Virus record (IMG/VR): IMGVR_UViG_2718218201_000002
Span: 64,001 to 117,885 of that record
Reading direction: 5' to 3' (one strand)
DNA from: a virus
Lineage: Duplodnaviria > Heunggongvirae > Uroviricota > Caudoviricetes
Length of the DNA stretch: 53,885 nucleotides
Made by a program: the position numbers and the translations under genes. The notes beneath the pieces were generated by a model that ran no database searches, was not told the origin of the DNA, and saw only the letters and a program-made list of their open reading frames with translations. Positions 1 through 27,067 of the stretch are shown here, piece after piece (position 1 is the stretch's first letter; every line of letters starts with the position of its first letter).

Positions 1-136
1 TTATTGGGCTGAGCGCTGACCATCTAATTTTCAGACCGTGAGCGTCCTCGAATTTTTTAATGACATGGTTTGCGTCCATGCCTACAAAATCGCCTTGAAC
101 ATTGGTTGCTAATACTAGCTTTCTTAACATTTTCAT
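1..136 (-). CDS. Small hypothetical protein, truncated by window edge (MKMLRKLVLATNVQGDFVGMDANHVIKKFEDAHGLKIRWSALSPI...)
   Basis: Not in ORF track. ATG at 136 preceded by SD AGGAGGG; frame stays open to position 1. Confidence 0.75.
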   Translation of the reverse strand, partial: MKMLRKLVLATNVQGDFVGMDANHVIKKFEDAHGLKIRWSALSPI

Positions 137-221
137 GTTTATTCCCTCCTAAAATTGCCTCGTTTTTTCATTAAGCTGGTTATATGCGACCGGAGACTCC
201 CAAAGTTTTGTGGTGAGAATG

Positions 222-455
222 TTAAATCTCGCCGTTCATAATATTCAATAACGTGCCGTATTCATTGAAGAAGTAATTTGTAACATTGTTTTTGTTGTCG
301 ATTACTTCAATTTTTAATTTTTCCAGCTCATTATCAAGCTGGTTTGCGATTGCGGTATTGCCGTCCGGTGTCTCGCCAATCAACATACTGTCAGCTTCTT
401 TAAGATTTTGTAGAAGCTGAACAATACTTGTTGAATCATTTATGTCGATTTTCAT
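222..455 (-). CDS. Small acidic hypothetical protein (early gene)
   Basis: 77 aa ORF; SD-like AGAGGGTGG upstream. Confidence 0.8.
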   Translation of the reverse strand: MKIDINDSTSIVQLLQNLKEADSMLIGETPDGNTAIANQLDNELEKLKIEVIDNKNNVTNYFFNEYGTLLNIMNGEI

Positions 456-550
456 TGTTCGCCACCCTCTTTCTTATCAGTATGTATATTTAGAATTTAA
501 TAATTCTATCGCATACCCGATAAATTTTGCATCGGATATACTAACAATCA

Positions 551-868
551 TTAAATTTCAACGAGCTCATCGAGCTCCTCGCAATCATCTTGATTGTGAA
601 TTGCTTTGAGAATTTCGTTGCTGTCATTAACATCGATTTCCTCAAATATTTCTGATTCATCGAGCATAGAGCCCCAAGAATCAGCTTTGCCGTTCCATTC
701 TAAATGATAACGACTTCCGAAATCACCACATGATGAGTTGCGGTAAGTTCCAATAACGCCTTTGTATTCGAATGTTACAACGGGTTGGTCGTAACCTCCT
801 CCATTGTTTTTCTTTTCTTCATTGAAGTAAGGGTTACTTTGTTCGATTTTTAAAATTTTAACAGTCAT
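551..868 (-). CDS. Small acidic hypothetical protein (early gene)
   Basis: 105 aa ORF; SD AGGAGG upstream; downstream of the sigma-A-like promoter at 918-946. Confidence 0.85.
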   Translation of the reverse strand: MTVKILKIEQSNPYFNEEKKNNGGGYDQPVVTFEYKGVIGTYRNSSCGDFGSRYHLEWNGKADSWGSMLDESEIFEEIDVNDSNEILKAIHNQDDCEELDELVEI

Positions 869-917
869 TTAAAACGACCTCCTTTGTTTATTAATTTATT
901 TTCTTATCTTTAACATT

Positions 918-946
918 ATTATACACCCGTATTGATAATATAGCAA
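918..946 (-). promoter_or_regulatory. Sigma-A-type promoter for the small early ORFs
   Basis: Minus strand TTGCTA-N17-TATAAT (946-941, 923-918). Confidence 0.7.
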
Positions 947-1439
947 CAATTATAATGATTACTTTTACACCTCTAGAGTATAAATGGCATCTAATTGTAA
1001 AAGTGATATGTAGTTGTATTATTATACTGATAGTAACCTTTGCTCCATATTCACCAACCAATTGTAACACAATCAATTGACCGAGTCACTAAAAAAATAA
1101 TGCATTATTATACGATAAGTATGTATAAATATGTATATATGAATTTGCTCATATAAGCCCGTATATGCGCCCTATTGCATGATAAAGTAATTAGGATATG
1201 TAATATCTGAACGCTTAAATATGTGTTAAACATTGAATATAAAGCTGTATGTTGATTTGACAAATAGCGTGAAATGTGGTAAAGTTTATGACCAAAATTA
1301 TTGTAATATGTAATGCCAATACAGAAGAGTGAACAAAAGCATAACCTAAAGAATGAATATAAGTTATGCCATTTAATCACATTCTGTTTTATAATGAATA
1401 GTAGCAAATATAAATATATTAATTGTTGCTGAACGAAAA

Positions 1440-3250
1440 TAATAGTATTATTAACGTATATCTGTTGGATATATATTTAAGTTTATATTAATAATATTAA
1501 TTACTTAATGTAATAGTTATATTAATATCCAATGATTAGGATTCAATGATATAAAATGAATATTGATTAAATAAATTATAGCATGTGTTGTGCTTTGTGT
1601 TAGATACGATACATATTAAATATAAATGATGTAATGTTGTATGTAAGAATGTTGATATTAGATGTGTTGGCACATTGATTGATAAGTTAATTGAGTATGC
1701 ATGTGTATTGAATGATGATTAGTAATAGATATAAGGTGATATGTAATGATGAATGATAGATAGTAAATAAATTAATTGATGGTGATGTGATGATGATTAG
1801 TAGGTAAATTGTTAAGTGAATAATATTAAATTGTAGTTTGTAATGTTTATTATTATGGAATGTATAATTTGTGATTATAATATTTTTATTATTATGTTTT
1901 AATTTGTTATTATCGATATTGTGATATGAATGTGTAGATGCTGAGTAGTGTGTGATTGTTAGTGTGATTGTTGAGTTGCTGGAGTGGGAAAGTGTGATGT
2001 GTTAGGTGTGGTGTGTGGTGGAGATGTGAAGATGTGAGAGGTGGAATGGAATGTGTGCGTGATTATGTGGTTGGGTGACTGGGTGATAATGTGTGTGTGA
2101 GGTGGAGAGATAGGTGTATTTGTTTGTTGGGTGCGAACACATTTCTCGCTGTTATCGGTACTGAAAAATTTTTAAAAAATTTGATTAAAATTTAAAACTT
2201 AATTTAATTCAGTGATTTACCTTGTGTTAAATTATTTTCGTTCGTGCTGGAGGCTATCCTTTCACTTGCCTTTCTACTTTCTTTTCGGTTCGTTAAAAGT
2301 TCCGGCAATCTCAAAATTTGGGGGATATTTTAGGGCTGGTCATATAACGTTTATTATCTGACCGCCTTTTTTGCTCGGCTTTTTATGCGGGGGGGTGGTT
2401 TAAGATTTCAGCTGACTTGATATGATTTTACATCGGCGTACTGTCCAAAAATCACCTCACCATTGACTAAATTACATATCAAATTTTTTTCATCTCACCA
2501 CTCAACTCACATTTTTCTGCCATATTTTCGTCACAATTTCCCAACACATACTCTTACTCTCTCCACCCATTCCCCACCTTATTTTCTTTCTCGAACCTAT
2601 CTCTCACAATTACATACTCTCTCTTACTATTCATCTCACTCTCCTTTCCTCTACCCACAGCATTTTTACCTTCCTGTATACAACTCACTAAATCATATGT
2701 TAATAAACGAAATTTTATCTTTATTTTCAGTTGTTTTACTTAACATCAAAACTAAATATCCTACCATTTTTAACTTTAACCAGATAAGTCATGTGAGATA
2801 TATTTTCTATATGCTTGATTCGATTAAATATCAACTCTAAACTTTTACTCGACTAACTTTTTTTATTTTTCAATCTTCAATTTTAAATTCCAATCAACCC
2901 TTTATTTTGCATTTGACCATTAAGTTGTTCTATAATCTTTTATCACGTTTTTCCTTCTTGCTTGTAACCACTATTTTTGCCATCTCAATTTCCTGCAATG
3001 TAAGCTATAATTTACTTATAATTAATTTGTTGAAAACACTGGCTTGTATTGTCTTGATTCAATTTTAAATCAAATTTTTTCTTGAAACATTTTTACAATA
3101 AACCTAATACTCTTCTACCTTCATTTACTTTTTAGTCATCAGTTAAGAGTTTGGACATTTTTAAAACTATTTCAGCTTCTCAATTTTTCCCATTTTTCAC
3201 TATTTTTCTTTAAAAACCAATTAAATCTCCATAATTAACTCTAAAAACAA
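1440..3250. other. Non-coding region with mirror-image strand skew (C-poor left arm, G-poor right arm)
   Basis: 6 C in 1681-2132; 7 G in 2461-2700 (hand counts). No credible ORF. Confidence 0.85.
2337..2364. other. 28-bp dif/res-like inverted repeat (11-6-11), candidate tyrosine recombinase site
   Basis: TGGTCATATAA-CGTTTA-TTATCTGACCG; arms match 9/11; ATAA-N6-TTAT core as in dif sites. Confidence 0.45.
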
Positions 3251-3251
3251 A

Positions 3252-3283
3252 TAAAAAAGAGACCGAAATTAATCAGTCTCTTT
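3252..3283 (-). terminator. Rho-independent terminator ending the replication block
   Basis: AAAGAGAC/GTCTCTTT stem followed by a U-tract on the minus strand, just after ORF 3292-3648. Confidence 0.8.
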
Positions 3284-3291
3284 AATCAATA

Positions 3292-3648
3292 TTACGCTTT
3301 TATATTACGTAATCTCTTATTCATTATTCTCTTTAGCAAATCAACTAAATCATCTTTCAAGAAATCTTTACGGATTGGATACCCTTTATTCATTTCTTCA
3401 AGGTAACTGTTTATGTATTGGTGACTTAATAATGTCTTAATTATTCTAAGAAATCTTACAGAATCATCTTGTTGTTCACACAAATAGTATTGAAATTCTA
3501 ATTCTAAACTTTCTTCACGATTAATTACATTCTTTAACTCAACGCTTAATATTCTTTCAGTATCATTTTTAGTTACTGTCAAACCTATCAATGAATTCAA
3601 AGTTGCCATTACATCTTTAAACTCATTAATCATCGCATGTTGCTCCAA
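3292..3648 (-). CDS. Hypothetical protein
   Basis: 118 aa ORF overlapping the upstream ORF; followed by a terminator. Confidence 0.75.
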   Translation of the reverse strand: MEQHAMINEFKDVMATLNSLIGLTVTKNDTERILSVELKNVINREESLELEFQYYLCEQQDDSVRFLRIIKTLLSHQYINSYLEEMNKGYPIRKDFLKDDLVDLLKRIMNKRLRNIKA

Positions 3649-3941
3649 GACACTTTATCTGCAATTCTTTCAACTTCTTTAAGCATTGATACTACATCGT
3701 TCAAACTAACTTTACCTTTCATTCTTCTCTTAGGACATTCTTTGATGTATCCTCTTGTAGCAGCTTGAACAGATGCATAGAACCCTCTAAACTTCCAACT
3801 CTTAGTATTCTTCTTCTTTCGTTCCTTAATATCAAAATCATACTCTAAAGATTCTAATTCTAAATTATCAGAATCACCACGTCTAATAATCCTAAAATCG
3901 TAAGGTAATTCCACCTCTAAGGTAATTTCATTATTCTTCAT
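3630..3941 (-). CDS. Hypothetical protein
   Basis: 103 aa ORF with SD GGAGGA. Confidence 0.8.
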   Translation of the reverse strand: MKNNEITLEVELPYDFRIIRRGDSDNLELESLEYDFDIKERKKKNTKSWKFRGFYASVQAATRGYIKECPKRRMKGKVSLNDVVSMLKEVERIADKVSWSNMR

Positions 3942-3957
3942 TTTTCGTCCTCCATGT

Positions 3958-4566
3958 TTAATAATTTAATTCTTCTTCGGCAATTTCTTCAAATTCTCTT
4001 TGAATCAAGTCTAAAATAAACCTTCTACCTTTGTTCGTCCATACCATATAGCTTCCAGTGTAACCATTACTCTTTCTGTAATAACTATCTTTCACTAAGC
4101 AATTATCTTGACTATCACAAAGAAAGTATCGGTCATAACACTTATATTGGATTCCTTTACAACACAAGAATTTATTCAATGCCTGAGGTTGCATATCGAT
4201 TTCTTGAGCAATCTCGCTAATTCTGTATGTTTCTTTTATTTCTTTTTGACCCGTGAGTTCTTTCCATTCATTTTCCAACATGTTTACTTGTTCAATAACC
4301 TTTGCTTTAAGCTCCAAGTTACCTCTTAGTTCTGAAAGAAAGAGTATAAATGCTCCACTTCTAAACTTATAATACGTTCTAGGTTCGTCCTTCTTGTCTA
4401 TGTATTTCGCTTTGTCCACCATTTCTTTTACATCATCTGGCACCCAATCAGACTTTAGGAATTTGCGTATACTCCCTAAAATATTTTTATGTTTTCTCCC
4501 AGTTTCGCTCGCAATTTCTAAGCTAGTAACTACACCTTTTCTGATATCAATTTCTAATTGTCTCAT
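3958..4566 (-). CDS. Rha-family regulator with C-terminal antirepressor (KilAC/ANT-like) domain
   Basis: N-terminal VTSLEIASETGRKHKNILGSIR is Rha-like; C-terminal ISEIAQEIDMQPQALNKFL...WTNKGRRFILDL is ANT-like. Confidence 0.8.
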   Translation of the reverse strand: MRQLEIDIRKGVVTSLEIASETGRKHKNILGSIRKFLKSDWVPDDVKEMVDKAKYIDKKDEPRTYYKFRSGAFILFLSELRGNLELKAKVIEQVNMLENEWKELTGQKEIKETYRISEIAQEIDMQPQALNKFLCCKGIQYKCYDRYFLCDSQDNCLVKDSYYRKSNGYTGSYMVWTNKGRRFILDLIQREFEEIAEEELNY

Positions 4567-4649
4567 TTTTCTTCCTCTATTTCATTTATTATTTTATCTT
4601 CTTTAAGCCTTTTAGCAACTCAACCGTATCTAGAACCCTTATGGTTTTT

Positions 4650-4678
4650 ATTTTACACTACATATACATATAATTCAA
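4650..4678 (-). promoter_or_regulatory. Sigma-A-type promoter for the Rha gene
   Basis: Minus strand TTGAAT-N17-TAAAAT. Confidence 0.55.
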
Positions 4679-4699
4679 TAATTTATTTCTTTTGGGACA

Positions 4700-5453
4700 A
4701 AGAATTGTTTCTCAAGCTCTATCATCAATTCTGAGTGGGCTATTTGTTCGCTCAGCAAACGTTAATTGATTTTTGGTACTAACTATCCAAAAAATGCTAT
4801 CGTTTGTCTACGTGGCTTAAAACGCAATAGTTTTAAAATTTGAGGTTTGAGATTAAAAACAATCATTTTACTCATTCAAAAAATCACCCATGCACTAATC
4901 CAAAACACTATCGTCCATTTCTGATAGTCTATTAGCCCGCTGAGAGCGTTTTAAATACTTTTAGGTAGTTTGTATCCAAAAATACTTACTTCGCATTCTA
5001 GCCCGTAAAATAACGCTCCTCGTAAGCGATGACTCTGATACCCATTAAATCGGGCTTTCTGATAATTTATTAGTCATAGTAGCTATGTACGTCATAAGTT
5101 TAAACACTAGATTCTTAGACGCTTCCTTTTGCTTTAGCAAAAATGGGAAGCAAAGGAAAGCCCTGCGGAACGTTAGTGACGTTAGGCTTTACTAAAAGGT
5201 CTTTTAATCAATCCCACATAGTTCTAAAATTTGAAAATCGGCGCCAAATTTGACGTATTTTTTGTCTAGAACAGCTCTCGTCCTTACTCCCACAAGGGAT
5301 TCAGCCATTTGAAAAATTTTTAAAAATCTCGTTTGGGGCACCACTTTTTTGACCCTTTTAAGTTATTAAGAATATATTTTTTGCTTACGCATCAGTAGTT
5401 TCAGCTTGTCCTATATTCTCTTATGAGAGGGTAAAAAATGCGCACCCATATGA
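4700..5453. other. Candidate phage replication origin
   Basis: ORF-free stretch directly downstream of the putative initiator. ATCCAAAA at 4785, 4898 and 4974; inverted TTAAAACGC/GCGTTTTAA at 4817 and 4946; several hairpins. Confidence 0.4.
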
Positions 5454-6359
5454 TTAAAATTCAGAGTCGAAAAATAAAAATACTTCGCTGACAAACTCAC
5501 CGTTTCTTTTGGTTGTAAATTGCTCGAGTCTGTAATTTTGATTAGTATAACTCTTTAGCTCTCTGTGTTGCTTTTTAAAAGTTCCTAAACTTGCTCCAAC
5601 CTTTTTAGCAAGAGAGTTCTTATTTACTTTAAATCGTGAATATCTAGTAGTAATTTTGTTAGCAAGCATATCCTTTACAACACAAGCGAGATACAAACTT
5701 TGCACCGACAAATTACCTTTTACGGTATCAAATAATGATTTGTATGTGATTGTTATGTATTTATCACCTTGAATATCAATTGGTGGTTTCACTAATTCCA
5801 TTTCTTGACCGTTCTTTCGAAAAACGCCTTTAGTGTGTCTAATTGGCTCAATAGACCTAACTGGCAAAGCTAATCGATTTGCATCTATCATTTTTTCTTT
5901 TTCGTCCTTACTTAATGATTTAAACATAGTGTAATTACCAAAATAATTCCGTTTCTCTTTATCCTCAACGTACGACACACTATATTCAACAGGAAAATCA
6001 TATTGAGTGCCGATAAATTGATTTTCAACTAAATAACTAGAATTTGAGAATAGTTTTCTTAATTTCTCACTGTACTTTATTCCTAGGAATTGACAAATAA
6101 TTTCTAAATTTATGTGGTGTCTCCTATAAGTGTAGCTCGCTTCTTTGTACACAAGTATAATACCCACATACAATAAAAGAGCTTTGGCTTTAATAGCGTT
6201 TGTAGTGTCCAAACCTTCCAAATATGTCATAAACTCTTTAGGAATCACAATCTTGAAATGGGAATTACTTTCCCTAAACACCCCCTTTCTCATTGTCTCA
6301 ATTTCCTCTTTGCTTAATAAAAATTTCCAATTATTATTTTTCTTTACTCTCTTTTCCAT
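5454..6359 (-). CDS. Putative replication initiator / DNA-binding protein
   Basis: 301 aa basic protein with HTH-like C-terminus (NKNSLAKKVGASLGTFKKQHREL); lies between a helicase and a repeat-rich non-coding stretch. Confidence 0.5.
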   Translation of the reverse strand: MEKRVKKNNNWKFLLSKEEIETMRKGVFRESNSHFKIVIPKEFMTYLEGLDTTNAIKAKALLLYVGIILVYKEASYTYRRHHINLEIICQFLGIKYSEKLRKLFSNSSYLVENQFIGTQYDFPVEYSVSYVEDKEKRNYFGNYTMFKSLSKDEKEKMIDANRLALPVRSIEPIRHTKGVFRKNGQEMELVKPPIDIQGDKYITITYKSLFDTVKGNLSVQSLYLACVVKDMLANKITTRYSRFKVNKNSLAKKVGASLGTFKKQHRELKSYTNQNYRLEQFTTKRNGEFVSEVFLFFDSEF

Positions 6360-6392: not shown

Positions 6393-8665
6393 TTATTTCA
6401 AAAATTCACTCATAAAACATTTTCTGCTTTTACCTTTGTCCGTCTTAATTGCTTGTACAATTGCTCCTGATTCAGCAAACAATAAGCATTTGTCAATTGT
6501 TCTTGTTAAAGCTGTATATAAGAATTGTCTACTTAACAATGCAAATTCGTTAAACGTCACAATGACTAGCAATGTTTTAAAACCTGACCCTTGAGAACGA
6601 TGCACGCTAATAGCGTAACCTAAATCTAATACACCGATTTCATTCTCGTTTTCATTCTTAGCATAGAACACTGGTTCATCGATTCCTTCAAACTTAATCA
6701 ACATACCCACGCCTTCTACACATTCTAAAATCGTACCAAAAGTGCCGTTAAAGACAGCTACAGAACTATGTTCAGCTTCTTCCCTGTCAATAAACTTATT
6801 ACTATATAATACAAAATTAGCCTGACTCATAATTATTGCACTGTAGTTATTTCCTTGTTGAATGATTCTATCACCTTTTCTAAATGTATGCTTTACACCT
6901 TTGATTTCTTCTTTTCCACTCGATGCTGGGTTAAAGATTTCTTGTAAATGCTTGTTCAAATTTAGAACTGAATAGTCACCTTTCTCTTTCAAACCAACAA
7001 TTACTTGAAAGTCTTCATTTCTCATTTCTGGATTATCCGCATAACGTTGAGCTGTTTGAAGAACGTCGTTTAAAATTAATGACTTATCTCGGTAGTAATT
7101 CTCATAGAAATCACTATTTACTCCAGAAACCTTTCTACCATTTTCGTTATATTTAATAATTTGTTTTCCATCACGAACTAAATTAGCAGCACTTAAAGTG
7201 CCTGAGTCCTGCGCTTGTCTATGGACTTCTTTTAATGTTACGTGAGCGAACTCAGTAGAACCTAATAAATAATCAAACACTGCACCATGCCCAATGGCTG
7301 GTAATTGCCCACTGTCGCCAACAATAATGAATGGAGAGCCTGTGGGGATTGCGCTGATTAAATCTAAGAATAATTTGTTATTGACCATAGATGCCTCATC
7401 TAAAATATACACAGATGATGGTAATGGATTAAATTCATTGTGAAAGAAGCTACCCATTTTAGGTTCAAACTTTAACAATCTATGAATTGTACTAGCGTTT
7501 AATCCGTTCATAGAAAGTACATTAGCCGCTTTACCTGATAAACTACATGCAGCGTGGTTGTTTTCGATACTTTCAACAGCGGCTCTTAATAAACTTGTTT
7601 TTCCCGAACCCGCTTTACCGTCTAGAACAAAAATCCCATTTGTTATAGCTTTCTCAATTCCTTCACGTTGTTCTTTATTGAACTTAAAACCTTGCTCGTG
7701 CTCTAACTTTTCTACAATCGTTTCATCAATATTACTAGGGTTAAAACCATCTCGTAATCTTCTTAAGTGACTAACAATTTGCTTTTCTTCATTTCTGTAT
7801 GTATGTAAACTAATAAATCCTTCGTTATAGTAAATAGCACTGTGGTTGATAATGTCCTCAAATACTTTATCATCAACTTCATCAATATCTAAAATATCAC
7901 ATAAGTCTTTCTCAAATTTATCAATTGGAATCTTGGTATCTCCATAATTAATAATGTGTTCAATCACATACAAAGCACCTGCAACAATTCGACGTTTATC
8001 TTTAGGAGATACACCTTGTTTTAAAGCATATTTGTCGATGGTTTTAAAACCAAAACCTGAGACTCAGTTAATTTGTAAACGTCGTTTTTAACAATTTGTA
8101 CAACTTTCTCTGGACTACCGAAATGTTCAGATAGTTTGATAACACTTTTAATGCCGGCACCTAAAGGAGAAAGTGCTACAATCGCTTTGCTATACTCATT
8201 GTAGTTCAATAGTTTTGCGATTATTTTTGACGCTATCGTTTCTTGAACACCACGAACTAAAGTTAAGTCAATTTTCTTATTAATAATATCCTCAATGATA
8301 TTTTCGTTTGAAAAGGTTGACAAAATATCTTTAGCTTGTTTCTCCGTTAAAATTTGATACAAAAATTCTTCTTGAGACTTTCTATCTTTCAGCCCGTCGG
8401 ACTTTACTTCAACAAAATTATATACATCAACGTTTCTTCTTTCGTCAAAACCTTCAACAAATTTTACCTTGTATGAATTTCCTTCAATTAACGCTGGTGT
8501 GTTTCCAACAATTGTAAAATTCTTATATGTAGTATGTAATTTCACTTGCGGATTAACTTCACCAGTAAACTTAAAACCATATGCACCATACATACTCCCC
8601 TCATTGTAAAACAACTCCTTAGTTACTGTTAATTCTTCTTCAAACTCTCTAAAAATTTTTTTCAT
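6393..8665 (-). CDS. recD2: RecD2-like SF1B helicase, split by a 1-nt frameshift near 8063
   Basis: Walker A GKAGSGKT, DEASM, GDSGQL, YAISVHRSQGS. The N-terminal half continues as (V)SGFGFKTIDKYA in the other frame. ATG at 8665 has SD GAGGA. Confidence 0.88.
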
Positions 8666-8708
8666 AGTAATATTCCTCGTTTCATTTTTATTTGCTTTAC
8701 AGAAACAA

Positions 8709-8737
8709 ATTATAACACCGAAGATATATATTGACAA
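8709..8737 (-). promoter_or_regulatory. Leftward sigma-A promoter for the recD2/replication operon
   Basis: TTGTCA-N17-TATAAT with extended -10 TGtTATAAT. Confidence 0.7.
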
Positions 8738-10500: not shown

Positions 10501-10836
10501 ATGGGAGTACGCTTATCAAAAAATTTAGTTATTAAGGAATTACAAGAACAATGTGCAGACTTAGGTGTAAAACTTAGTCTAGAAGAAACACGTAAAGTTA
10601 TTACGGCTTTTGAACATACAATTGAGGAAGCTATTTTAGCAGCAGACTCAAAAGAGTATGATTCTTTTGGTTTTTCATTTGGTCAATTCAAAGTTATTGA
10701 TGTACCACAACGTTCAGGACACTCTAGTTTATTTGGTAAAGACTGGGTAACTGGAGCGCACAAGCGAGTACATTTACAATTCTCAGCACCGCTTAAACGC
10801 CGCTTAAAAGAAGAAACTTTAAAACCAGTTGAATAA
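10501..10836 (+). CDS. HU/IHF-like histone-like DNA-binding protein (SPbeta YonN-like position)
   Basis: FGQFKVIDVPQRSG...AHKRVHLQFSAPLKRRLK matches the HU beta-arm pattern; SD AGGAGA. Confidence 0.75.
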   Translation: MGVRLSKNLVIKELQEQCADLGVKLSLEETRKVITAFEHTIEEAILAADSKEYDSFGFSFGQFKVIDVPQRSGHSSLFGKDWVTGAHKRVHLQFSAPLKRRLKEETLKPVE

Positions 10837-10855
10837 TTGAAAGGAGATAGAAAAC

Positions 10856-11041
10856 TTGGCTAAATTAACTAACACTGTTTCTTTTAAAAATGCAATTATT
10901 GATTTTGAAAACGACACAATTACAGAGGTCACTAAAGATACAGAATCGACTTTTAAGTTATCAGAAATTATTAATCGATTCGAAAATAAATATGTTTCAT
11001 TTTCTATCAAAGAAGATACAGAAGTCTTTGGAGATGAATAA
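10856..11041 (+). CDS. YonK-family protein
   Basis: 61 aa; ITEVTKDTESTFKLSEIINRFENKYVSFSIKED resembles SPbeta YonK; syntenic; SD AAAGGAG. Confidence 0.7.
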   Translation: MAKLTNTVSFKNAIIDFENDTITEVTKDTESTFKLSEIINRFENKYVSFSIKEDTEVFGDE

Positions 11042-13465: not shown

Positions 13466-13544
13466 GTTGGTTGGACGATGGTCTCCCCTTACCTCTCTCC
13501 TACCATCGCCCACCGAACAAAAAAATAATTAGGTGGTGTTTTGT

Positions 13545-14429
13545 GTGGCAATTAGAGATGCCAAAGTTGAAAAAATTAAAACATGTGTTCACTGCAACAG
13601 AAACCTAGTTAGAGATACTAATTTTATATCAATAAATGGTAAAAACGCCGCTTTCCCAGATGGATATTATCCAGTGTGTAAGCGTTGTATAGAAGAGCTA
13701 GTAAATGAGCCTGTTGAGGGATATAAAAACTTTATAAACGTACTTATGGGTGTTAATCGACCGTACAAAGAAGAAGAATTTAATAAAGTAGGACGACAAA
13801 GATATAAATACTTAGTAAGAAAAAATCCTACACGAAATAAGGAGTTGTTTATTGAATCAGATAGATTCTTTAATGCATATGAAGCAAAACTTACAGAGGA
13901 TACAATTGAAAAACTAACCCCCGAGGAGTTAAGAGATTGTCAATTGTATTGGGGAGAAGAATATGTTGAAGATGAATATTTGTTCTTAATAAGCAGATAT
14001 GAAGACTACTGTAACGCTTACGACGTTGATACACCAACGTTTCAAAATATTATCACTCAGATTTGTCAATTAGAGCTTGATATTAGGAAGAAACGTATAA
14101 AGTCAGTTAATACAAAAGATGAAACTAAAATGATTATGGACTTAATGAGGACAGCTGGTATCGCCCCTTCTCAAGAAAAAGCAAGTAAGACTAATGAGAA
14201 TGAAACATTTGGAGTCATGGTTAAACGTTGGGAAAACGAGAAACCAGTACCAGAAGTGCTACCAGAATTTAAAGATATTGATAATATTGAAAAATACATG
14301 AGAAACAATTTCTTATCGCCTATGTTGACTTCATTAGAAGCTGACAATCCTTATGAAGAAGAATACCAAGAACATGTAGAGAAATATGGTATCTCTGAGG
14401 ACGAGTTATTAGGGAGTAATAAAGAATAA
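13545..14429 (+). CDS. Putative terminase small subunit (Zn-finger, YonG-like position)
   Basis: GTG start after SD AGGTGG; CVHC...CKRC motifs; overlaps the terL start. Assigned by position. Confidence 0.65.
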   Translation: MAIRDAKVEKIKTCVHCNRNLVRDTNFISINGKNAAFPDGYYPVCKRCIEELVNEPVEGYKNFINVLMGVNRPYKEEEFNKVGRQRYKYLVRKNPTRNKELFIESDRFFNAYEAKLTEDTIEKLTPEELRDCQLYWGEEYVEDEYLFLISRYEDYCNAYDVDTPTFQNIITQICQLELDIRKKRIKSVNTKDETKMIMDLMRTAGIAPSQEKASKTNENETFGVMVKRWENEKPVPEVLPEFKDIDNIEKYMRNNFLSPMLTSLEADNPYEEEYQEHVEKYGISEDELLGSNKE

Positions 14430-16240
14430 TGGGCTTTAGTGTAAGTAACGGTACTCATAGAAGTCAATATCACTCTAAAGTAAATTTATTCAAGTTAAGA
14501 CGTAATCATAGAAAAACAGAATCAAAGTCTGTATCAGCTATGAAGAATATAGCTATATGGATAGCTTATTACAGAGAAAACCCACATAGATTTGTGTTGG
14601 AATTTTTGAATATTAATCTTAAACCATTCCAATGTGTGCTTTTGTGGGCGATGATACAACATCATTACTTTGTATTTATTGCCTCGAGAGGTATTGGTAA
14701 GTCCTTCTTGTCTGCGGTGTATTGCGTAACTAGATGCGTACTTTTTCCGGGTACAAAGATAGTTGTTACAGCCCCTACTAAGTCACAAGGTATCTTGATT
14801 CTTGAGAAGATTGAGAATGAAATTTTGCCTAATGCCCCATTGTTACAAAGAGAAATAGCTGAATTAAAGACTGGTAATCAAAAACCAATTATTGTATTTC
14901 AAAACGGTAGTTGGATTAGAGTAGCTGCTTCAAATGACAACGCTCGTGGTTATCGTGCTAATTTGCTTTTGGTTGACGAGTTTGTAAAAGTTGACCCTGA
15001 TATTATTAACTCGGTATTTAAAAAGATGTTGACGTCACAACGTGAACCGTTATTCTTGACTAAACCAGAATACAAAGATTACAAACGTGAAGAAAATATG
15101 CAAATGTATTTATCTTCAGCATGGTATAAGTCTCACTGGGGATATACTACAACATTAAACTATACAAAACATATGTTGAAGAAAAAGAGTGAAGACGCAT
15201 TAAAGTCATTTGTTTGTCATGTCCCCTACTACACCGGTGTACAAGAGAAATTATATTCGCATGAAAGTATGAAGGCTGAAGCACAAGCTGATGGTTTCAC
15301 TAAGATGAAATTTGCTATGGAAATGGAAGCTCGTTGGTGGGGAGAATCAGAGTCAGCTTTCTTTAATTTCAACAAGATTGATATTAACAGAAAAATTACT
15401 GATGCTTTTTATCCAAGAGAGGTTACTGAGCACACAAACATAGTAAACCCTAAAAAAGAGCCAAAAGAAAAAAGGATACTATCTGTCGATGTCGCTCGTA
15501 TGGGTGGTAACTCAAATGACGCTTCTGTGTTTAGCTTGATTAGGTTGGTACCTAAGAATAAGCAATATGAACGGCAACTGGTTTATATGCAAGACATGGA
15601 AGGAGAAGACTTCCTAACTCAAGCAATAAGAATTAGACAGCTTTATGATGATTTTGATTGCGACTATATCGTACTCGATTCAAGAAACGTTGGATTTGGT
15701 ATCTTGGATAACTTGAGGGTACCATTGTTAGACACTGAGCGTGGTGTCGAATATGAGCCCTTAAACGTATATAACGATGATAAATTAGCAGCTACATCAA
15801 AATTTCCTGAAGCTCCGAGAGTAATCTACACAATTAATGCAACTAACGAGAAAAATATGGAAATGGCTAACTTGTTAGCTGACAACTTTATGCGTGGCAA
15901 GTTTAGATTACTAATAAGAGAAGAGTTAGCCGAAGAATTAATGAGAAACAATAATAAAATAAAATTCTCGCAACTAAAGAACAACATTCAAGCATTACTA
16001 AAATATCCGTTTAGACAAACAGAATTGTTTATTAACGAAGCGATGAACTTGGAACAAGTCAACATGGAAGGCGGAGCTTTCAAACTTGTTACATACGGAA
16101 CGGCACGTAAGGATAGATACTCTTCTGTATCTTATGGAAACCAATTTGCTACCGTTCTAGAACGTGAGTTACAACGTACTACAAAAACAACAAACTTTAG
16201 AAACTTTGGTTCAATGAGAAAACCAAAAGCAATAGTATAG
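14429..16240 (+). CDS. terL: Terminase large subunit
   Basis: Walker A ASRGIGKS, Walker B LLLVDEF, RNase H-like nuclease ILSVDVAR...NDASV...KDRYS. Confidence 0.95.
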   Translation: MGFSVSNGTHRSQYHSKVNLFKLRRNHRKTESKSVSAMKNIAIWIAYYRENPHRFVLEFLNINLKPFQCVLLWAMIQHHYFVFIASRGIGKSFLSAVYCVTRCVLFPGTKIVVTAPTKSQGILILEKIENEILPNAPLLQREIAELKTGNQKPIIVFQNGSWIRVAASNDNARGYRANLLLVDEFVKVDPDIINSVFKKMLTSQREPLFLTKPEYKDYKREENMQMYLSSAWYKSHWGYTTTLNYTKHMLKKKSEDALKSFVCHVPYYTGVQEKLYSHESMKAEAQADGFTKMKFAMEMEARWWGESESAFFNFNKIDINRKITDAFYPREVTEHTNIVNPKKEPKEKRILSVDVARMGGNSNDASVFSLIRLVPKNKQYERQLVYMQDMEGEDFLTQAIRIRQLYDDFDCDYIVLDSRNVGFGILDNLRVPLLDTERGVEYEPLNVYNDDKLAATSKFPEAPRVIYTINATNEKNMEMANLLADNFMRGKFRLLIREELAEELMRNNNKIKFSQLKNNIQALLKYPFRQTELFINEAMNLEQVNMEGGAFKLVTYGTARKDRYSSVSYGNQFATVLERELQRTTKTTNFRNFGSMRKPKAIV

Positions 16241-26041: not shown

Positions 26042-27067
26042 GTGACAATAAATAAAAACATGTTACGTCAACGTGCTCAAAAGTTACCTGAGGTCACTGA
26101 TGAAATGTGGCAAAAAGTAAATCCCCTAACCCGAGAATTAATTGATGAGTTTTTAAATTCGATTGATGCTTCAAAACAAACTAAAAAACAATATCGTTCA
26201 GCTTTAAAGCAATTCGCATATTTTGTTTATGAAAGTTTGAATGACAAGCCATTATATAAGATTAAAAAACGTGATGGACTAAGGTTTATAAATTACTTAC
26301 GTGAGAATCGTAAAATGTCCTCTTCCGGAATTAATCTTAAAAAATCTGCTATATCTTCGTTTTGCTCTTGGATTGAAATGTATTTAACTGACGATGATGA
26401 ATATGTTAACGAGCACGGAGAACCCCTATTTCAAACCTTTAGAAATTTTATGAAAGGTTTGCCTCCAGTGGTGAAAAATCAAACGTATCAAAAAATAAAA
26501 ATTACACATGAAGAATATTTAAAGATGATGGAAGCTCTTGAAAGTGATGAAAACTATTTAGGTATGGCATGGTTAGCTGTGGCTTTTAATGCTGGGGCAA
26601 GACGTGCTGAAATCATTCAACTTAAATCTGAGATTGTCAACTACCCTTTCAATGAAGAAGGTAGTTACATATTAACGCACAATATCAGAGGTAAAGGCAG
26701 AGGAGAAGATGGAAAAATGCTTCAGTACATGATAAATGATGAAGCGTTGAAGTACATCAAAATATGGCTAGATAAACGTGGTTTTGAACATGAATATATT
26801 TTCGCTTTGAAACGTGGCGATAATATTAGACAAATGAGCGTTAGTTGGGCTGATTATTTTTGCGAAAGTGTGTTGTCTCCAATATTAGGGCGACGCATTA
26901 ATCCACACATATTTAAAGCAAGCTGTATTACTTATCTCTTAGAAGTTAAAGGTGTGGATATTAAACATGTATCAAAACATGTTGCACATCACGAATCAGT
27001 AAATACAACTCAAATTTATGACCTAAGGGATTTTGACGACGAACGTAATAATATTTTTAACAAGTGA
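26042..27067 (+). CDS. Tyrosine recombinase (XerC/D-like) within the tail module (SPbeta YomM-like position)
   Basis: Catalytic motifs GARRAEI, GKG, HIFK (HxxK instead of HxxR), AHHES, TTQIY. Confidence 0.88.
   Translation: MTINKNMLRQRAQKLPEVTDEMWQKVNPLTRELIDEFLNSIDASKQTKKQYRSALKQFAYFVYESLNDKPLYKIKKRDGLRFINYLRENRKMSSSGINLKKSAISSFCSWIEMYLTDDDEYVNEHGEPLFQTFRNFMKGLPPVVKNQTYQKIKITHEEYLKMMEALESDENYLGMAWLAVAFNAGARRAEIIQLKSEIVNYPFNEEGSYILTHNIRGKGRGEDGKMLQYMINDEALKYIKIWLDKRGFEHEYIFALKRGDNIRQMSVSWADYFCESVLSPILGRRINPHIFKASCITYLLEVKGVDIKHVSKHVAHHESVNTTQIYDLRDFDDERNNIFNK

Follow-up and report, generated by a model that had tools for sequence, protein, structure and literature searches.

Positions 1440-3250 of the window studied here (a 53,885-nucleotide stretch, bases 64001-117885 of the 117,885-bp IMG/VR provirus IMGVR_UViG_2718218201_000002) hold a non-coding region in which two arms of extreme and opposite strand composition converge on a short core. 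In the identity of its large terminase subunit (TerL) and in gene content the 118-kb provirus fits an SPbeta-like Staphylococcus phage, and the locus is very probably a packaging start or genome end. The fuller reading is that of a DNA-maturation locus, with the core as packaging start and the arms just inside the virion ends, where they may serve as single strands; for this combination we regard the chances as evenly divided. The parts of the element, in window coordinates, are:

1551-2133, plus strand: left arm, made only or nearly only of G, T and A, with G density climbing toward the core to about 44%.
2134-2444, plus strand: core, 311 bp of ordinary composition, the predicted terminal block.
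2160-2210, no strand assigned: A/T tract in the core, containing a copy of ATCAAATTTTTT at 2174-2185 on the minus strand.
2337-2364, no strand assigned: 11-6-11 dyad, TGGTCATATAA-CGTTTA-TTATCTGACCG, with arms matching at 9 of 11 positions.
2380-2395, plus strand: T5-N4-G7 motif, with the G7 at 2389-2395.
2440-2455, plus strand: ACTGTCCAAAAATCAC, the predicted region of the right-end cut, where the G-free arm begins.
2445-2750, plus strand: right arm, rich in C, T and A and almost free of G, carrying ATCAAATTTTTT at 2478-2489.

On the plus strand, the 452 nt from 1681 to 2132 contain 6 C and 138 G, and the 240 nt from 2461 to 2700 contain 7 G and 80 C. GC skew in 200-nt windows is +1.00 at 1701-1900 and -0.84 at 2501-2700, and in the whole 117,885-bp provirus only the two arms have windows with an absolute skew of at least 0.7. 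The C-free runs of the left arm span 1701-1913, 1980-2057 and 2080-2133; the first of these (213 nt) is the longest in the genome, against about 4e-14 expected with independent bases. Over the initial 200 nt of each arm, 32-34% of the G strand is G and 1-2% is C. A previous interpretation made from the letters of the window (the sequence-only reading) had already described the convergence, and its counts, including the G5 at 2320-2324 in the core and the G7, are all exact on recounting. The skew it placed at 1440-3250 is real but strong only in a narrower extent, about 1551-2133 and 2445-2750; past 2750 it does not exceed that of the neighbouring minus-strand genes, and the remainder of the region is ordinary AT-rich non-coding DNA. 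It was also right that the open reading frame (ORF) map places the flanking genes of both sides on the minus strand and that the arms are not an inverted repeat: between them there are only short matches such as ACCTATCTCTC (at 2595, with its reverse complement at 2105), and the search for tandem and inverted repeats returned only short, weak families. Neither strand of an arm can fold, because one lacks C and its complement lacks G. In single-strand folding each strand of each arm reaches -2 to -7 kcal/mol per 300 nt, and the left arm has a minimum free energy of about -2 kcal/mol per 300 nt on either strand, compared with a background of -21 +/- 5 kcal/mol per 300 nt in which 0 of 149 windows was weaker than -10.

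The identification of the locus comes from Bacillus relatives whose packaging start is mapped. Kohm et al. (bioRxiv 10.1101/2021.11.22.469490) locate genome opening and the start of packaging in SPbeta, phi3T and Goe11-14 to the spacer between yonR and yonP, in a precise "pac-site" block of about 250 bp whose first base is the first packaged. This placement follows Fink & Zahler 1982, and a review (PMC8270828) likewise puts genome opening and the ~250-bp block between yonR and yonP. The supplement of Kohm et al. prints a 251-bp fragment with the packaging start at its position 251; it corresponds to 10666-10916 of the SPbeta piece L005, with packaging running rightward in the orientation used here. 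A C-free run (10609-10665) ends 1 nt before this block and a G-free run (10916-10987) starts at its last base: the composition switches of SPbeta coincide with both block edges to within 1 nt. In a scan of the whole SPbeta genome the strongest G-rich window is the yonR-yonP spacer, which contains a weak C-poor flank, an A/T tract, the dyad TGCACGTATAA-TGTTCC-TTATACACGCA, a G5 and a C-rich, G-poor flank; phi3T and Goe14 have an equivalent layout with longer C-free flanks than SPbeta. The Bacillus block and the locus described here thus share the phage group, the order of parts, the orientation relative to the terminase and a similar size (251 bp vs. a predicted 311 bp). They differ in that no homology is detectable, in the neighbouring genes and in the arms, which are 2-6 times longer and purer here. 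The core has an A/T tract, dyad and G run at the fixed spacing within a predicted block of 311 bp, inside the range of 250-380 bp. The terminase and late genes lie downstream of it, and packaging would run in their direction.

A second mapped relative bears on the nature of the block. For Clostridioides phage phiCD211, PhageTerm gave a short direct terminal repeat of 378 bp (PMC5557969), and the two ends of its record are identical over 378 bp. A G5 run precedes the end of this repeat by 47 nt (..GTAGT|CCTTTCATTTCCACAT..), in SPbeta the distance from G5 to block end is likewise 47 nt (..ATAGC|ACTTCCATTTCCACAC..), and ..CATTTCCACA.. follows the end in both, in phiCD211 as part of a G-free stretch. 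From G run to block end there are 47-48 nt in the Bacillus phages; from G run to the end of an invariant ACTGT there are 49-51 nt in the Staphylococcus and Mammaliicoccus relatives and 49 nt in this phage (spacings in PhiSepi-HH3, hereafter HH3, and phi36 were counted by eye). Like the present phage, phiCD211 has its terminase gene well inside the left end (~9.4 kb), a related TerL and flank skew of equal polarity, but its skewed flanks are weak and only 30-100 nt long, and its dyad spacing is different. We take the block to be a short terminal repeat because the phiCD211 repeat, with a related terminase, shares the G-run spacing; of the two options, an exact terminal repeat and a pac site whose ends are headful, the former seems to us the somewhat better bet. 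As a provirus, the genome studied here carries the block only once, and the support for a repeat is indirect. Kohm et al. report two sharp, size-constant block edges in the Bacillus phages and almost no permutation in SPbeta. An artefact of read length behind the 250-bp block was considered and thought unlikely, because Kohm et al., who used 2x300 and 2x150 reads, give one precise size for all isolates, and because both edges lie at composition switches.

By analogy, the packaging start of the present phage is predicted at ~2134 and the right-end cut at ~2444 (311 bp), which would place the left arm just inside the right (last-packaged) virion end and the right arm just inside the left (first-packaged) end. 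The sequence-only reading had left the choice between a resolution locus and the end of the virion genome; the mapped block of SPbeta, phi3T and Goe11-14 and the phiCD211 spacing speak for the latter.

Although blastn of 1400-3300 and of the core against 50,697 phage records found no similar DNA, the converging skew recurs at the syntenic position in all relatives whose flanking sequence is long enough, namely PhiSepi-HH3, SPbeta-like, SPbeta-like 2, three Mammaliicoccus phages and four IMG/VR contigs. Aligned cores reveal a shared anatomy, from left to right: a C-free arm of 600-1000 nt with G densest beside the core, the A/T tract, ~130 variable nt, the 11-6-11 dyad, T5-N4-G5-7, GTTnAAGATTT, ACTGT and a G-free arm of 300-500 nt. 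The A/T tract has the equivalent relative place in staphylococcal relatives (by alignment) and in SPbeta, whereas T5-N4-G5-7 occurs in every Staphylococcus and Mammaliicoccus relative examined and only its G run is kept in the Bacillus phages and phiCD211. Orientation of the layout relative to the terminase gene is constant across relatives, SPbeta, phi3T and Goe14 included, and the distance from core to TerL is 12 kb here (same strand sense) vs. ~9 kb in those three. Around the element, genes are divergent in Bacillus and all on the minus strand in Staphylococcus, with arms present in both.

The two arms evolve differently. Divergence between relatives is fastest in the left arm (61% identity to the nearest one), where few substitutions involve C; between SPbeta and Goe14 this arm is non-homologous with the three-letter alphabet kept. 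Conservation is higher in the right arm, where the words CAAATTT, ATTTTCA and TTCCATTTCCACA are common across genera. The 12-mer ATCAAATTTTTT has three exact copies, at 2174-2185 (minus), 2478-2489 (plus) and 3069-3080 (plus), and none elsewhere in the 118-kb genome; the first two form an inverted pair bracketing most of the core. HH3 and the Bacillus phages have CAAATTT words akin to it in their right arms.

The dif-like site that the sequence-only reading saw in the core is real. ATAA-N6-TTAT is invariant in 10 phages while the outer arms of the dyad covary: 9 of 15 pairs show changes on both sides (compensatory), pairing holds in 76.7% of cells but drops to 36-51% on sliding the partner, and the observed score was never attained in 500 shuffles. 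The dyad is under selection, its symmetry being upheld by compensatory change. When ATAA-N6-TTAT with dyad arms matching at no fewer than 8 of 11 positions is combined with a G5 within 60 nt, the composite occurs exactly once per genome, at the convergence, in this phage, HH3 and SPbeta. Beyond ATAA/TTAT, an informal look showed no likeness between the arms of the dyad and the host dif.

The sequence-only reading had gone further and read the G-rich arms as polar signals of the KOPS/SRS kind that steer FtsK/SpoIIIE to a resolution site, which in this model would be dif-like and serve an Xer-type recombinase. Its geometry is indeed that of a chromosomal dif region, with G-rich strands running 5'-3' toward an 11-6-11 ATAA-N6-TTAT site from both sides, and the phage does encode an Xer-like recombinase. 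However, chromosomal dif systems work on the scale of replichores and not of kilobases, and the known KOPS and SRS words are not enriched over local shuffles: GGGNAGGG occurs 0 times vs. 1.1 expected, GAGAAGGG once vs. 0.5 and GAAGAAG once vs. 1.5, and allowing one mismatch lifts none of the three above expectation. The arms have no repeated octamer that would define them, the dyad sits asymmetrically in the core (with 204 nt between it and the left arm and 80 nt between it and the right one), the arms are reduced to traces beside the phiCD211 repeat, and the locus is a packaging start in relatives. We regard this model as extremely improbable. A polarity signal for the terminase, the other translocase that had been suggested, is also unlikely, because packaging would go one way through a mirror-symmetric structure. 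The host Chi words GAAGCGG and AGCGG, which contain C and are for that reason excluded from a C-free strand, have counts at expectation.

Another parallel for the dyad is phage P1, whose pac site is accompanied by cyclisation through Cre/loxP: in both cases a tyrosine recombinase goes with a dyad just inside the packaging start. In a terminally redundant genome the dyad would be present at both ends. The Xer-like enzyme is a candidate partner of the dyad, although its gene, as opposed to that of P1, lies in the late operon and its action on the dyad is inferred.

Several observations concern the origin of the skew. If the block stands at both virion ends, the 3'-ending strand at each terminus is the G-rich, C-free one. 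Weak skew of matching polarity, with C>G on the inward-reading strand, is found beside the repeats at the ends of SP6, phiCD211, T7 and T3 (in the last two at the left end only), and opposite polarity in 0 of these 4, a sample of few phages (pieces L046, L050, L052/L053 and L048/L049). Third codon positions were compared in minus-strand genes on both sides of the core, pooled over four phages (this one, HH3, SPbeta and phi6255). Within 4 kb left of the core, G/C on the plus strand is 424/314 vs. 1300/1532 at 6-20 kb (p = 2e-8), and first and second positions do not change near the core. Left-near and right-near skews differ (p = 9e-5), the sign flipping across the core and the effect fading within ~4-5 kb. 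The shift is a gain of G on the 3'-ending strand (17.9% vs. 11.3%) with C unchanged. A strand-asymmetric bias therefore reaches into coding DNA.

One possible explanation for this is that the arms have no function and are the mutational scar of a strand-asymmetric process at genome ends, for example long-lived 3' tails, that becomes fully visible only in unconstrained DNA. Such a scar accords with a skew that switches exactly at the edges of a block which, being exposable on both strands, is itself unskewed, with a left arm that diverges fastest and arises in non-homologous flanks, with the third-position skew extending ~4 kb into same-strand genes on the left, and with the weak skew of matching polarity in other terminal-repeat phages. 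It accords less well with a signature of G gain instead of C to T, with inner arms whose G+C is above that of ordinary intergenic spacers and whose AT skew is not mirrored, with GT words enriched over composition (ATGTG, GTGTG and TGTGA, 3-3.5 times on the G strands of the arms vs. local shuffles) and with the ~2 kb of gene-free DNA kept in every Staphylococcus and Mammaliicoccus relative examined. We consider a pure scar unlikely, and mutational scar and selected element are not separable on these data.

The enriched oriented words also suit arms that are double-stranded binding arrays, in which weak oriented sites for TerS, the HU-like protein or DnaA would build a nucleoprotein complex around the cuts; the hexamer arrays of the P1 pac site and pacL/pacR of SPP1 are parallels. 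The words that right arms share across genera and the confinement of ATCAAATTTTTT to this region agree with such arrays, as do DnaA boxes (TGTGGATAA on the G strand, same orientation) clustered in left arms of relatives: 7 within 440 nt in phi6255 (L004 6530-6930), 3 of them perfect, 3 in phi36, 2 in L007 and 2 in HH3. On the other hand, known pac recognition regions are much shorter than arms of 300-1000 bp, the left arm has no positional conservation even among close relatives, and the total loss of one base is not required for binding. The DnaA box TTATCCACA is absent from 1000-3700 within one mismatch, and a relaxed consensus occurs once in the left arm vs. 2.2 expected and 0 times in the right vs. 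1.3. Binding arrays are in our view distinctly improbable.

The same boxes might indicate a replication origin, with the A/T tract of the core as unwinding element and the structure-free arms as loading zones for helicase and primase or as opposed DnaA-box arrays, and a RecD-like helicase gene lies nearby. Yet the polarity of the skew is that of a terminus and not of an origin, boxes are lacking here and in the right arms, and the function mapped in relatives is packaging; an origin has only a slight chance of being correct.

Transcription offers another account of the composition: outward transcripts would be C-rich, G-free and unstructured, like Rho substrates, and inward ones G-rich and prone to R-loops, serving to insulate the packaging site or acting as non-coding RNAs. 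The B. subtilis small RNA ncr1052/ncr44 (183 nt, plus strand), reported by Irnov et al. 2010 (PMC2965217), maps to SPbeta L005 10697-10879, inside the published pac block, and the SPbeta core is therefore transcribed in lysogens; the RNA ends just past the dyad and G5. In the present phage T6 directly follows the dyad, and a hairpin is possible that could terminate such an RNA. The predicted RNA hairpin is, however, -14.1 kcal/mol here and weak in relatives (-6 to -8 kcal/mol), and the arms are kept despite the different gene orientation in Bacillus and Staphylococcus. A sigma-70 promoter scan found 23 sites vs. 20.9 expected, a chance level that makes it uninformative, and Rfam at E <= 1 on 1-6000 gave no match in the region and one chance snoRNA match outside it. 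We give transcription as the cause of the arms very little credence.

The mechanism that we propose for a DNA-maturation locus runs as follows. Terminase would cut at the left edge of the core, with packaging proceeding rightward toward the terminase genes, and the core, with its dyad, T5-N4-G7 and a cut-proximal ACTGT at fixed distance from the G run, is probably the block repeated directly at both virion ends. The ends may then become single-stranded through 5'-3' resection or incomplete lagging-strand synthesis, exposing arms that would stay unfolded, the 3'-ending strand being G-rich without C and its complement without G. Terminal repeats exposed on the 3' tails could anneal or recombine and thereby circularise or concatemerise the genome. 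On each 3' tail a hairpin-free GT-rich tract 5' of the repeat would suit the loading of single-stranded DNA-binding protein or recombinase, with a filament growing 5'-3' from the arm over the repeat; RecA prefers TGG/GT-rich single-stranded DNA (PMC3763553). The same exposure may bias mutation in a strand-asymmetric manner. The inner tetrads of the dyad are Xer-like and its outer arms are symmetric in a clade-specific way; it may be where the conserved late-operon tyrosine recombinase acts, in the manner of P1 Cre/loxP. In its boldest form, the proposal would make these telomere-like ends that work by strand composition, the three-letter GT-rich tract being a loading zone, independent of sequence, for a recombinase or single-stranded DNA-binding protein that would drive annealing or invasion by the repeat, and the lox-like dyad a second route of circularisation or resolution; we find this form rather unlikely.

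A number of points weigh against the DNA-maturation reading as a whole. Kohm et al. interpret their data as pac and headful packaging and not as a terminal repeat; headful packaging would take the left arm away from the virion ends and leave the mirror symmetry to be explained in some other way. When SPbeta, phi3T and Goe14 were searched with an nhmmer profile built from seven Staphylococcus-type cores, there was no match (the best hit, with E = 2, lay elsewhere), and the equivalence with the Bacillus block consequently rests on architecture and spacing, not on sequence homology. We found no virion-end mapping of Staphylococcus or Mammaliicoccus SPbeta-like phages in the literature, and the boundaries given here are predicted. 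The conserved right-arm words point to protein binding, and codon choice in early genes could also account for the third-position gain of G. Deamination of the simple kind (C to T, A to G) is rejected as sole cause of the skew, because it is G (33-44%) and not T that gains, purines make up 66-75% of the right arm's G strand and C at third positions is unchanged. That the arms act in, or were shaped by, a single-stranded phase is the most tentative step, since exposure of the arms and binding of a recombinase are inferred; we lean mildly against it.

The junctions of T7 and T3 resemble the locus in the succession of terminal repeat, inner C-rich and G-poor tract on the inward-reading strand, early promoters and an anti-restriction gene (0.3 in T7, with ArdA as the counterpart in relatives of the present phage). 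In relatives ardA lies ~3.4 kb left of the core, a position that would fit a left side that is the last-packaged and first-injected end, like T7 gene 0.3. The T7/T3 tract differs in being a repeated heptamer of ~150-200 nt (SRL array) at one end only, and the terminases are only distantly related. T7 was rejected as a full analogue, the right-end array not being mirrored.

The wider genome context includes the following features:

3283-3256, minus strand: intrinsic terminator that closes the leftward early operon and bounds the non-coding region on the right.
13533-16240, plus strand: candidate small terminase subunit and large terminase subunit, ~12 kb downstream of the core in the packaging direction.
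26042-27067, plus strand: Xer-like tyrosine recombinase of the late operon, with Pfam Phage_integrase and a SAM-like N-terminal domain, in the position of SPbeta yomM.

The YonF-like TerL (14429-16240) shows 75% identity to the Staphylococcus phages PhiSepi-HH3 and SPbeta-like, 57% to Mammaliicoccus phages, 43% to YonF of Bacillus SPbeta and 34% to Clostridioides phiCD211. The gene directly before it is a candidate for the small terminase subunit by position only, and no family match was found for it. A recombinase gene has the equivalent place in SPbeta, phi3T, Goe14, the Staphylococcus phages and phi6255. The plus strand further encodes an HU-like protein, an exonuclease and a 2470-aa tail protein, and the minus strand a RecD-like helicase, an antirepressor-like protein and small genes.

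The skewed region itself contains no convincing gene and no tRNA gene was found in it. An ORF at 2463-2840 (plus strand, 125 aa) was rejected as an artefact of the G-free arm, because without G neither TAG nor TGA is possible and only TAA can stop a frame. Annotations of relatives call small ORFs across arms and cores. The RecD-like helicase ("exonuclease V") is split here into two ORFs on the minus strand, 6393-7973 and 8021-8737; it is a single 2.3-kb gene in KT429160 and the Mammaliicoccus phages, and an extra ORF interrupts the PhiSepi-HH3 copy. A 301-aa protein of unknown function (phrog_18421; 5454-6359, minus strand) occurs only in the 8 Staphylococcus and Mammaliicoccus SPbeta-like phage records and, where checked, is always encoded between the helicase gene and the skewed region; a protein-based scan of genome contigs with it gave no match. 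In PhiSepi-HH3 (L002 8480-8950) two similar ~100-nt stretches ~300 nt apart were seen by eye within the 1.9 kb of non-coding DNA that extends from the right arm to the gene for this protein.

The packaging start of SPbeta has already been published as a 250-bp block, with its flanks unmentioned there; we found no description of the skewed arms in any paper, and neither "skew" nor "G-rich" occurs in Kohm et al. The most extreme anomaly of strand composition in these 120-150-kb genomes marks the ends to the nucleotide where ends are mapped, and thereby predicts the ends of the Staphylococcus and Mammaliicoccus phages (here 2134 and 2444). The phiCD211 spacing suggests that the "pac block" of SPbeta is a short terminal repeat, which would change the view of packaging in this model phage. 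Arms that work through their composition and nothing else would represent a cis element of a new kind; a mutational scar would show which of the two strands becomes exposed where phage DNA ends. Existing tools in B. subtilis suffice to test either possibility. Staphylococcal SPbeta-like prophages carry accessory genes, and knowing their ends helps the study of their transfer.

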